A stretch of DNA of 64,000 nucleotides from Escherichia coli (GTDB lineage Bacteria; Pseudomonadota; Gammaproteobacteria; Enterobacterales; Enterobacteriaceae), in NCBI RefSeq assembly GCF_030013205.1, contig NZ_CP122648.1; one strand, given 5' to 3'. Of this stretch, positions 4,637 to 52,326 are shown in pieces (positions within the stretch are counted from its first letter, which is position 1; each line of letters begins with the position of its first letter). Made by a program: the position numbers and the translations under genes. Below the pieces are notes generated by a model. That model was given only the letters and a program-made list of their open reading frames with translations, searched no databases and was not told the origin of the DNA.

Positions 4637-4713
4637 GGCTACGTAGCTCAGTTGGTTAGAGCACATCACTCATAATGATGGGGTCACAGGTTCGAATCCC
4701 GTCGTAGCCACCA
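4637..4713 (+). tRNA. metT: tRNA-Met (anticodon CAU, elongator)
   Basis: 77-nt sequence GGCTACGTAGCTCAGTTGGTTAGAGCACATCACTCATAATGATGGGGTCACAGGTTCGAATCCCGTCGTAGCCACCA with encoded CCA. Confidence 0.95.
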
Positions 4714-4721
4714 TCTTTTTT

Positions 4722-4806
4722 GCGGGAGTGGCGAAATTGGTAGACGCACCAGATTTAGGTTCTGGCGCCGCAAGGTGTGCGAGTTCAAGTCTCGCCTCCC
4801 GCACCA
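4722..4806 (+). tRNA. leuW: tRNA-Leu (anticodon UAG)
   Basis: 85-nt type II tRNA with long variable arm; anticodon loop TTTAGGT; encoded CCA. Confidence 0.95.
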
Positions 4807-4829
4807 TTCACCAGAAAGCGTTGTACGGA

Positions 4830-4904
4830 TGGGGTATCGCCAAGCGGTAAGGCACCGGTTTTTGATACCGGCATTCCCTGGTTCGAATCCAGGTACCCCA
4901 GCCA
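4830..4904 (+). tRNA. glnU: tRNA-Gln (anticodon UUG)
   Basis: 75-nt TGGGGTATCGCCAAGCGGTAAGGCACCGGTTTTTGATACCGG..CCAGCCA; anticodon TTG. Confidence 0.95.
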
Positions 4905-4938
4905 TATTCTTCGAGTAAGCGGTTCACCGCCCGGTTAT

Positions 4939-5013
4939 TGGGGTATCGCCAAGCGGTAAGGCACCGGTTTTTGATACCGGCATTCCCTGGTTCGAATCCA
5001 GGTACCCCAGCCA
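4939..5013 (+). tRNA. glnW: tRNA-Gln (anticodon UUG), identical second copy
   Basis: 75-nt sequence identical to the copy at 4830-4904. Confidence 0.95.
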
Positions 5014-5028
5014 TCGAAGAAACAATCT

Positions 5029-5105
5029 GGCTACGTAGCTCAGTTGGTTAGAGCACATCACTCATAATGATGGGGTCACAGGTTCGAATCCCGTCGTAGC
5101 CACCA
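5029..5105 (+). tRNA. metU: tRNA-Met (anticodon CAU), second copy
   Basis: 77-nt sequence identical to 4637-4713. Confidence 0.95.
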
Positions 5106-5153
5106 AATTCTGAATGTGTCGAATATGTTCGGCAAATTCAAAAACCAATTTGT

Positions 5154-5228
5154 TGGGGTATCGCCAAGCGGTAAGGCACCGGATTCTGATTCCGGCATTC
5201 CGAGGTTCGAATCCTCGTACCCCAGCCA
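5154..5228 (+). tRNA. glnV: tRNA-Gln (anticodon CUG)
   Basis: 75-nt tRNA with anticodon loop GGATTCTGATTCCGG (CTG); encoded CCA. Confidence 0.95.
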
Positions 5229-22597: not shown

Positions 22598-22620
22598 TAC
22601 CTGTCGTTACGGAGGGCATG

Positions 22621-23232
22621 ATGCGACTGTGGTTAATTCGTCATGGTGAAACGCAAGCGAATATCGATGGTCTGTACAGCGGTCATGCTCCCACACCCCT
22701 GACTGCGCGCGGTATTGAGCAAGCGCAAAATCTGCATACGCTGCTACATGGTGTTTCCTTTGACCTGGTTTTATGCAGTGAACTGGAACGGGCACAGCAT
22801 ACCGCGCGACGGGTTCTCAGTGATCGCCAGCTTCCCGTGCAAATCATCCCTGAACTCAACGAAATGTTTTTTGGCGACTGGGAGATGCGACATCATCGCG
22901 ACCTCATGCAAGAAGATGCCGAAAACTATAGCGCGTGGTGCAATGACTGGCAGCATGCTATCCCCACGAACGGTGAAGGATTTCAGGCATTTTCACAACG
23001 TGTGGAACGGTTTATCGCAAGGCTTAGTGAATTTCAGCACTATCAGAATATTTTAGTCGTCAGCCATCAGGGTGTACTGAGTCTGTTAATCGCCCGTTTA
23101 ATTGGTATGCCTGCCGAAGCTATGTGGCATTTTCGCGTTGACCAGGGGTGTTGGAGCGCCATTGATATCAACCAAAAATTCGCGACGCTACGCGTCCTCA
23201 ATAGCCGTGCCATCGGGGTCGAGAATGCATGA
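22621..23232 (+). CDS. cobC: histidine-phosphatase family protein CobC/PhpB (alpha-ribazole phosphatase-like)
   Basis: 203 aa; RHGETQAN catalytic motif; alternative start one codon upstream (22618). Confidence 0.9.
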   Translation: MRLWLIRHGETQANIDGLYSGHAPTPLTARGIEQAQNLHTLLHGVSFDLVLCSELERAQHTARRVLSDRQLPVQIIPELNEMFFGDWEMRHHRDLMQEDAENYSAWCNDWQHAIPTNGEGFQAFSQRVERFIARLSEFQHYQNILVVSHQGVLSLLIARLIGMPAEAMWHFRVDQGCWSAIDINQKFATLRVLNSRAIGVENA

Positions 23233-48975: not shown

Positions 48976-49009
48976 TCCCATCTGCACAAGCGATAACTCG
49001 CTTTGCCCA

Positions 49010-49033
49010 GAGGATGCACTCGCATCCTCTTTT
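49010..49033 (+). terminator. rho-independent terminator of rnk
   Basis: GAGGATGC-ACTC-GCATCCTC followed by TTTT. Confidence 0.7.
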
Positions 49034-49117
49034 CGCTCAAATATCAACCAGATTTATCATTTTGCTCTTAAGCGCAGCATTCTAATCTGAACTGGTTATT
49101 CATCTGCGGAACCTCAT

Positions 49118-49207
49118 ATGAGCGAAGCTCTCGGTATCACTGCATTTTATATATTCATAGCCGCGATTATTGTTGCTGCAGTGCTATACCTTGAACAACG
49201 CTGGTAG
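49118..49207 (+). CDS. candidate 29-aa single-pass membrane peptide (MSEALGITAFYIFIAAIIVAAVLYLEQRW)
   Basis: Short ORF below the track cutoff, translated by hand; one hydrophobic helix; weak RBS; no homology evidence. Confidence 0.2.
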   Translation: MSEALGITAFYIFIAAIIVAAVLYLEQRW

Positions 49208-49330
49208 CGCCTGGTTTTATTTATTTTCCAGCTCAATAGCAAATTCAGATCAAATCAGCCTCGCAAATCATAGATTCATAACCAATAATGTGCTGTTATG
49301 TATACATGCAAAAACAAGGAGAGAATGCTT

Positions 49331-49759
49331 ATGTACAAGACAATCATCATGCCAGTGGATGTTTTCGAAATGGAATTGAGCGACAAAGCTGTTCGCCACG
49401 CTGAATTCCTCGCCCAGGATGACGGAGTTATTCATCTACTTCACGTACTACCCGGGTCAGCCAGCCTGAGCCTGCACCGTTTTGCCGCTGATGTGCGTCG
49501 TTTTGAAGAGCATCTGCAACATGAAGCAGAAGAACGTCTGCAAACGATGGTCAGCCACTTCACCATCGATCCTTCCCGCATTAAGCAACATGTCCGTTTT
49601 GGTAGCGTGCGGGATGAAGTCAATGAGTTGGCAGAAGAACTGGGGGCTGATGTTGTAGTTATCGGTTCGCGCAACCCTTCGATTTCGACCCATCTGTTAG
49701 GTTCTAACGCCTCGAGCGTGATCCGCCACGCCAATCTGCCGGTGCTGGTTGTGCGTTAA
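49331..49759 (+). CDS. uspG: universal stress protein UspG (YbdQ)
   Basis: 142 aa from [19 protein letters not shown].. with RBS AAGGAGAG; the track ORF starts 11 codons upstream. Confidence 0.9.
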
Positions 49760-49829
49760 TTGCCAGAATAAATATCCCGCCCTGCCCGGAGCCATCCCGG
49801 CGGGGCTTTTTATTGCCATAATAAATATC

Positions 49830-50535
49830 CTCCGGCATAGCCGGAGGTTTTTCAAATGCGCCTATAAGGCTCTCTTACCAGCCGCGCCCTAACAGGCGCA
49901 CACGATCTGACATTTGCATCCAACTTCGTTACTTACGGCCCGTAAACGGGCTGCCCGGATAGGGAATCGATAACTGCTCTCCCATTTTATCCTCTTCAAG
50001 CTGGTGCTTTATGTAATCCTGTATCTTCGCCGTGTTCTTACCCACTGTATCGACGTAGTACCCTCTGCACCAGAACTCCCTGTTCCTGTATTTGAATTTC
50101 AAATCACCAAACTGCTCGTAAAGCATCAGACTGCTTTTCCCTTTCAGATATCCCATAAACCCGGATACGCTCATTTTGGGCGGGATCTCCACAAGCATAT
50201 GGATATGATCTGCACAGCATTCAGCTTCCAGAATCCGTACGCTTTTCCACTCACACAGCTTTCTCAAAATACTGCCTATTGCTCTACGCTTCTCTCTGTA
50301 GAACACCTGTCTTCGGTATTTTGGCGCAAAAACTATGTGATATTTACAGTTCCATCGGGTGTGCGCTAAGCTCTTTTCGTTCCCCATTGGGACCCCCTTT
50401 TGATTTCTTGTTTGACACTTGCAGTTGCCAGACCGCAAGGTGTTTTAACAAATCAAAAGGGGTTTTAATAACTGGCTCAAAGCTGAAAGCTTTCCGGAAC
50501 CCCCAGCCTAGCTGGGGGTTTTCTGTGCACAAAAA
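49830..50535 (-). mobile_element. IS200-family insertion sequence (boundaries approximate, +/- about 30 bp)
   Basis: Contains a 152-aa Y1 (HUH) transposase gene; upstream of it the characteristic perfect hairpin CCCCCAGC-CTA-GCTGGGGG (50500-50518) and a second stem-loop (CCCCTTTTGATTTG..CAAATCAAAAGGGG) occluding the RBS; size about 0.7 kb as expected for IS200. Confidence 0.8.
49929..50387 (-). CDS. tnpA: IS200 transposase TnpA (Y1/HUH)
   Basis: MGNEKSLAHTRWNCKYHIVFAPKYRR..ADHIHMLVEIPPK.. with HUH motif HIH; near-identical to the IS200 TnpA I recall from Salmonella; the track ORF starts 17 codons upstream. Confidence 0.9.
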   Translation of the reverse strand: MGNEKSLAHTRWNCKYHIVFAPKYRRQVFYREKRRAIGSILRKLCEWKSVRILEAECCADHIHMLVEIPPKMSVSGFMGYLKGKSSLMLYEQFGDLKFKYRNREFWCRGYYVDTVGKNTAKIQDYIKHQLEEDKMGEQLSIPYPGSPFTGRK

Positions 50536-50560
50536 AGCCGCCAGGTTTGACCCCGGCGGC
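50531..50560 (-). terminator. rho-independent terminator of ahpF
   Basis: On the minus strand GCCGCCGGGG-TCAAA-CCTGGCGGC followed by TTTTTT, 30 bp after the ahpF stop. Confidence 0.7.
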
Positions 50561-50590
50561 TAAGCAATTGCAGGTGAATCTTACTTCTTC

Positions 50591-52156: not shown

Positions 52157-52326
52157 GTTTATCTCCTGGGCTTTAAACATCATCATGCAAGCGGCCTCTG
52201 CGGCTACCTGGATGCAGCTTGCATCATGGTGCGGGGAAGAAAATCGGGTGCCGCAGCACCCGAAGAATTAGGTGAATTTCCGAAGTATTTCGCGCCGGAG
52301 TTGGTAGCGCGAAAGACGAAGGAAAT

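Follow-up and report, generated by a model that had tools for sequence, protein, structure and literature searches.

Judged from its sequence, the spacer between the convergent genes uspG and ahpF in this Escherichia coli DNA almost certainly holds an intact copy of IS200C, probably still mobile, lying on the minus strand at 49820-50530 directly against the intrinsic terminator of ahpF. Positions refer to the window, the whole 64,000-nucleotide stretch that was analysed. IS200C is the E. coli form of IS200 and falls within the IS200/IS605 family. An earlier note on this DNA, made from the letters alone, had already placed an IS200-family insertion between the two genes, and RefSeq indeed names an identical protein at the same locus an IS200C transposase. 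The copy itself is thus already known: it is annotated, and it occupies a landing site typical of its kind. The parts of the element and the two host terminators that flank it are as follows.

49820-50530, minus strand: complete IS200C element, 711 bp, whose top strand is the minus strand of the window and runs GTGCACAGAAAA...GGATATTTATT
49929-50387, minus strand: tnpA, encoding the 152-aa Y1/HUH transposase; 459 nt with the stop codon, identified by Pfam, NCBIfam and its catalytic residues
50498-50520, minus strand: left-end perfect palindrome with a 10-bp stem and a 3-nt loop, seen in the fold, as an inverted repeat and as positions 1-23 of Rfam STnc490
50519-50522, minus strand: A-tract (element nt 9-12) just 5' of the left-end hairpin, a putative target-reading guide by analogy with IS608
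50394-50462, minus strand: 5'UTR stem-loop, in which the Shine-Dalgarno region AAAAGGGG pairs with CCCCTTTT
50397-50520, minus strand: Rfam RF01405 STnc490, the IS200 5'UTR / art200 antisense RNA region, from a covariance-model match
49829-49847, minus strand: right-end hairpin with an 8-bp stem and a 3-nt loop, from the DNA fold and a terminator scan
49820-49828, minus strand: right-end tail ATATTTATT, up to the right cleavage point; invariant or nearly so in IS200C-type copies and followed by unrelated sequence
50531-50561, minus strand: ahpF intrinsic terminator, the target, a host feature left intact; 10-bp stem at 50536-50561 and T6 at 50531-50536, from K-12, the terminator scan and the fold
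49777-49812, plus strand: native uspG terminator, a host feature left untouched and present in K-12

The limits of the element come from the comparison with the uninterrupted uspG-ahpF spacer of K-12 that the earlier note had suggested as a check, and this comparison defines the insertion point and a single 711-bp block. The spacer measures 831 bp in the window (49760-50590) against 120 bp in K-12 MG1655, and relative to that empty site the insert is exactly 711 bp. The limits first given for the element, 49830-50535, therefore have to be replaced by those of the K-12 empty site, being 10 bp short at one end and 5 bp long at the other. At the right end, 27 distinct downstream flanks diverge right after ...TATTTATT, and unrelated sequence starts right behind ...GGATATTTATT in these 27 distinct copies. 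Alignment over the full 1-711 was obtained both with IS1541A/B of Yersinia pestis, at 87.5% identity, and with an E. coli plasmid copy, which is 100% identical to the window element. An element reaching past 49820 or 50530 was considered and rejected: copies elsewhere did align for 30 bp beyond the left end and about 15 bp beyond the right end, and these over-long alignments at other loci proved to be different, look-alike terminators and T-runs. Within the 711-bp insert tnpA is the sole family-matched open reading frame, and there is no tnpB. Terminal inverted repeats are absent, and the subterminal hairpins of the left and right ends differ from each other and are unrelated in sequence.

One detail of the ends can be read in two ways. 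The junction runs T6, then the element ending in TT, then ATGG, and the empty K-12 site has T6. With TT at the end of the flank and again at the end of the element, the sequence would fit either 711 bp without duplication or 709 bp with a 2-bp TT duplication, and the same TT end ambiguity has been recorded for Salmonella IS200 (PMC1360685). The absence of target duplication is the option favoured by the family's known mechanism.

The minus-strand gene that the earlier note had taken to encode a 152-aa Y1/HUH transposase does so by domain, family and residue alike. TnpA is recognised by Pfam Y1_Tnp with E=3.8e-38 and scores 147.7 bits with the NCBIfam equivalog transpos_IS200, whose cut-off is 55, and its catalytic residues are present as an HUH motif (HIH) at residues 61-63 and Tyr125. 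In Ellis et al. 2015 (PMC4513863), changing this tyrosine (Y125F) gives the catalytically dead enzyme. Among solved structures, the nearest are those of Sulfolobus IS200-like transposases (2ec2, 4e-23) and of IS608 TnpA (2a6m, 4e-19). The protein is identical to WP_000526135.1, annotated by RefSeq/PGAP as an IS200C family transposase at the same locus of matching genomes.

The structured parts of the element are equally well preserved. The left-end palindrome occurs once in the window against 0.01 occurrences expected by chance, and its core, CCCCCAGC-CTA-GCTGGGGG, lies at 50500-50518, exactly where a perfect hairpin had been described from the letters; the stem extends further, to the 10 bp listed above. 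Ellis et al. 2015 (PMC4513863) describe this palindrome in IS200 as a terminator against transcription entering from outside. The stem-loop that had been proposed to sequester the ribosome-binding site of tnpA is also upheld. Its arms, at 50394-50409 and 50447-50462, form an inverted repeat with 94% complementarity, the RNA folds at -40.4 kcal/mol (z = -3.9), the Rfam structure line concurs, and the STnc490 model is matched over its full length (1-124) with 146.4 bits against a gathering score of 56 (E=2.5e-31). The other Rfam matches nearby, to snoZ223, anti-hemB and Actino-pnp, are weak and lie under their thresholds. The published map of IS200 has the terminator at nt 12-34, the stem-loop at nt 69-138 and art200 opposite the 5'UTR (PMC4513863), and the window element agrees with this map in having its palindrome at nt 11-33 and its stem-loop at nt 69-137. 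At the other end, the right-end hairpin with its T-rich tails is terminator-like on both strands in the terminator scan and is conserved among the right ends of other copies. This hairpin corrects the earlier placement of the element between the ahpF terminator and hairpins on the uspG side: the ahpF side stands, and the hairpin at 49829-49847 belongs to the element as its own right end.

Could such a copy nevertheless be a dead relic, or a Y1 enzyme domesticated by the host, such as a REP-associated RAYT, instead of a mobile insertion sequence? The observation that would make one ask is that transposition of IS200 has very seldom been observed (PMC4513863). We regard this reading as very improbable indeed. 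The open reading frame is intact with its catalytic residues, the left and right ends are both complete, and many other copies encode the identical protein. Close relatives carry the element in 19-33 places, and nearly all E. coli have an empty uspG-ahpF site. As for a RAYT in particular, the NCBIfam model REP_Tyr_transpos gives 32.2 bits, below its cut-off of 80, and the flanks consist of two gene terminators without REP sequences.

The insertion site can be described to the nucleotide. The ahpF sense strand of K-12, which is empty at this locus, reads ...GCCGCCGGGGTCAAACCTGGCGGC-TTTTTT-ATGGCA, and in the window this hairpin and T6 are followed by the element and only then by ATGGCA. The element begins directly behind the sixth T of the ahpF terminator and has the orientation of ahpF. 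To our knowledge, the K-12 genome is without any IS200 copy. The expectation that the insertion disrupts no gene holds, in that no gene is interrupted and both the ahpF and the uspG terminators are unbroken relative to K-12. Two features of the uspG side deserve a remark of their own. A direct repeat of 22 nt with 20/22 positions identical (49756-49777 and 49809-49830) spans the right-end junction of the element, and GGATATTTATT is found twice in the window against 0.06 occurrences expected by chance. The native sequence just past the uspG stop codon (TTAATTGCCAGAATAAATATCC plus hairpin) likewise resembles a flank joined to an IS200 right end. A relic of an IS200 right end or a MITE was considered as the source of the native uspG terminator unit and rejected, given that it occurs as a single copy in 4818 E. 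coli genomes and that half of the 22-nt repeat is ordinary flank similarity; the likeness may well be due to chance.

The position directly after an intrinsic terminator is the usual landing site of IS200-type elements. Metagenome contigs were scanned for the left-end palindrome and 98 distinct left-end flanks were collected, a sample that was drawn with one exact 22-nt left-end pattern and covers close IS200 relatives only. A hairpin with its 3' foot 2-12 nt before the junction was found in 85 of these flanks, and 84 of the 98 have at least 5 T among their last 6 nt. TT stands at the junction in 82/98; the other 16 end in TG (13), CT, AT or GT, and the TG endings reflect a left-end variant 1 nt longer than the fixed 12-nt offset used. 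Over the last 40 nt of the flanks the mean folding energy is -18.2 kcal/mol, compared with -6.3 for shuffled sequences and -6.8 for right-end flanks. As a control, runs of at least 5 T in the window were given the same hairpin test; 24% pass, with a mean energy of -6.3. The same arrangement of hairpin and T-tract precedes E. coli copies behind phoR, behind an ldr gene and on a plasmid, and the IS1541B copy on Y. pestis pMT1 lies right behind a hairpin and T7 and ends in GGATATTTATT. Because 13/98 flanks have no clear hairpin, the hairpin is not strictly required. The association between terminators and IS200 is not new, and only its mechanism would be. Odaert et al. reportedly proposed terminator-like stem-loops as hot spots for IS1541 in 1998. 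More recently, terminator-like sequences were described immediately upstream of insertion sequences, most strongly in IS200/IS605 (2025-26 preprint, 10.1101/2025.07.22.666184). A Yersinia IS1541 copy between pheL and pheA, and so behind the pheL attenuator terminator (PMC3082878), is a further example of the rule, one in which attenuation control may be disabled.

A simpler account of this association would have IS200 integrate after any run of T, the link with terminators arising from selection for harmless sites and not from recognition of the hairpin. What is invariant at the junction is the TT, and some flanks, as noted, lack a detectable hairpin; in the IS608 model, moreover, the target is read solely by base pairing with the guide. 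The published Salmonella target is three T residues in AT-rich DNA (PMC1360685), which also suits this account. Set against these points is the frequency of hairpins, 87% at IS200 left ends versus 24% at ordinary runs of at least 5 T. The element is also always in the orientation of the terminator and exactly abuts the end of the T-tract, whereas selection for neutral sites alone would scatter insertions over intergenic DNA in both orientations. This exact abutment and fixed orientation argue for mechanistic targeting over the mere survival of harmless insertions, and we consider integration behind just any T-run unlikely as the full explanation.

How, then, might a terminator be targeted? Elements of the IS200/IS605 family are moved as single-stranded DNA ('peel and paste') by one Y1/HUH tyrosine transposase that works via subterminal hairpins instead of inverted repeats. 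In IS608, a tetranucleotide 'guide' beside the left-end hairpin reads a short sequence 5' of the left cleavage site. The window element went into the ahpF sense strand directly 3' of the terminator's T6 tract, and this T-tract would have been read by the left-end A-tract (nt 9-12) as in IS608. By this analogy it is likely that the A-tract is the guide and the T-tract its target. Across left-end variants, GAAAA (element nt 8-12) varies least among the first 12 nt; the A-tract is invariant in the metagenome sample, and so shows no covariation with the target. The right end of the element (A-tract, hairpin, ATATTTATT, cut) resembles the form of the target (hairpin, T-tract, cut). It is conceivable, though we would stop short of calling it probable, that IS200-type transposases actively recognise intrinsic terminators in single-stranded DNA, the hairpin and T-tract mimicking the element's own right end while the A-tract guide reads the T-tract. 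If that is true, every terminator is a potential safe harbour, and some, like that of ahpF, receive insertions again and again in separate lineages.

Replication might be what exposes the single-stranded target, or else pausing of RNA polymerase at the terminator. The ahpF sense strand is the forward strand of K-12 at 640 kb, which we take from the K-12 map to be the lagging-strand template of its replichore. The lagging-strand template is the strand preferred by characterised members of the family, and the GC skew of the window weakly agrees with this assignment. For a terminating RNA polymerase, the ahpF sense strand is at the same time the non-template strand, so the locus cannot separate the two sources of single-stranded DNA. 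Once in place, the element would expose ahpCF transcription to two terminators in series, that of ahpF and the left-end palindrome, and the ribosome-binding site of tnpA would be buried in the 5'UTR stem-loop, with art200 antisense RNA presumably encoded by the same region. We infer that two terminators and a buried ribosome-binding site fit the known near-dormancy of IS200, an element that has been described as almost dormant (PMC4513863). The locus is a clear example of the rule that IS200-type elements land behind intrinsic terminators in the same direction, which would keep host genes and transposase quiet.

The distribution of the element bears on whether the insertion can serve as a strain marker, as the earlier note had supposed. 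Sequence internal to IS200 was found at a coverage of at least 80% in 2070/5426 complete E. coli genomes, in up to 35 places and with a median of 1, and the uspG-side junction was found in 28 of the same 5426. Over 64 kb, the window and strain K_EC180 (swine, Korea) are 99.996% identical, and the K_EC180 genome has about 19 IS200 places. The PGAP annotation of K_EC180 also agrees with the earlier remark that the element is the only mobile DNA in the window, in that the matching region shows no further annotated transposase, integrase or phage gene.

A single ancestral insertion inherited by all 28 carriers would make the junction a clean lineage marker, and its rarity is in keeping with that, as is the fact that about 20 of the 28 are near-identical pig ETEC/O139:H1-type genomes with exactly the same junction. 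The remaining evidence makes a single origin distinctly improbable. The carriers show three junction registers, T6|IS|ATGG, T6|IS|T-ATGG and T5|IS|TT-ATGG. In XJ5.2, AST205, E300010 and E100341 the element differs from that of the window at 0/711 positions, whereas flanks of about 730 bp differ at 14-24 positions. In three Z142 genomes (including Z142-2), by contrast, the IS200 at the same site differs at 29/711 positions (4.1%). Repeated independent insertion into the ahpF terminator is the simplest reading that these sequences suggest, and would make the site a recurrent hot spot, although homopolymer length errors, gene conversion between IS copies and recombination could mimic part of the pattern. 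Of the strain-marker proposal, then, the rarity of the junction stands and its uniqueness does not, the junction appearing to have arisen more than once. The uspG-ahpF junction, rare and seemingly of several origins, is unfit as a lone lineage marker. The copy number of about 19 or more in this lineage, far above that of most E. coli, may help to type pig ETEC/edema-disease strains. For the window itself the insertion matters little; it is a harmless and already annotated IS200C copy.

Among known systems, IS200 of Salmonella enterica (Lam & Roth 1983) and IS200C share with the window element a length of about 0.7 kb, a single 152-aa TnpA and the lack of inverted repeats, along with the left-end terminator palindrome, the Shine-Dalgarno stem-loop, the art200/STnc490 region and the right-end hairpin. 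The Salmonella element is quoted at 707 bp (PMC4513863) against 711 bp here, and differs in nothing of substance. IS1541A/B of Y. pestis, which align over the whole 711 bp as described above, belong to another species and isoform and are about 12% diverged. IS608 of Helicobacter pylori and ISDra2 of Deinococcus radiodurans resemble the window element in their homologous TnpA (2a6m at 4e-19, 2xm3 at 2e-16), their subterminal hairpins, their lack of inverted repeats and their insertion 3' of a short specific sequence. Unlike the window element, which has tnpA only and goes to a T-tract after a hairpin, they carry tnpB as well, and their targets are TTAC or TTGAT. Homing to the 3' side of intrinsic-terminator stem-loops is likewise known from bacterial class C group II introns. 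The likeness to them is functional only, a parallel 'safe site' strategy, and their mechanism, that of a retroelement and ribozyme, is unrelated.

The window departs from K-12 in several other places. Next to the locus, the window (48976-49330) lacks ybdR, a gene that K-12 has between rnk and uspG; K-12 homology upstream of uspG ends at 49313, and the rnk-uspG gap measures 355 bp, whereas that of K-12 is about 1.55 kb long. A small gene, yldA, is annotated by PGAP at 49118-49207. On the other side, in the ahpC-ahpF spacer (window 52295-52306), about 86 bp of K-12 remain unaligned to the window, probably a small repeat (REP-type) that is missing from the window strain. The metT-type tRNA cluster at 4637-5228 has six genes (Met, Leu, Gln-UUG, Gln-UUG, Met, Gln-CUG). 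The K-12 cluster presumably has seven, including a second Gln-CUG. Finally, cobC (22618-23232) is an intact 204-aa open reading frame in the window and is annotated as frameshifted in K_EC180. The sole indel between the window and K_EC180 is one base at window position 22965, and the K_EC180 frameshift may be a homopolymer error in the assembly of that genome.
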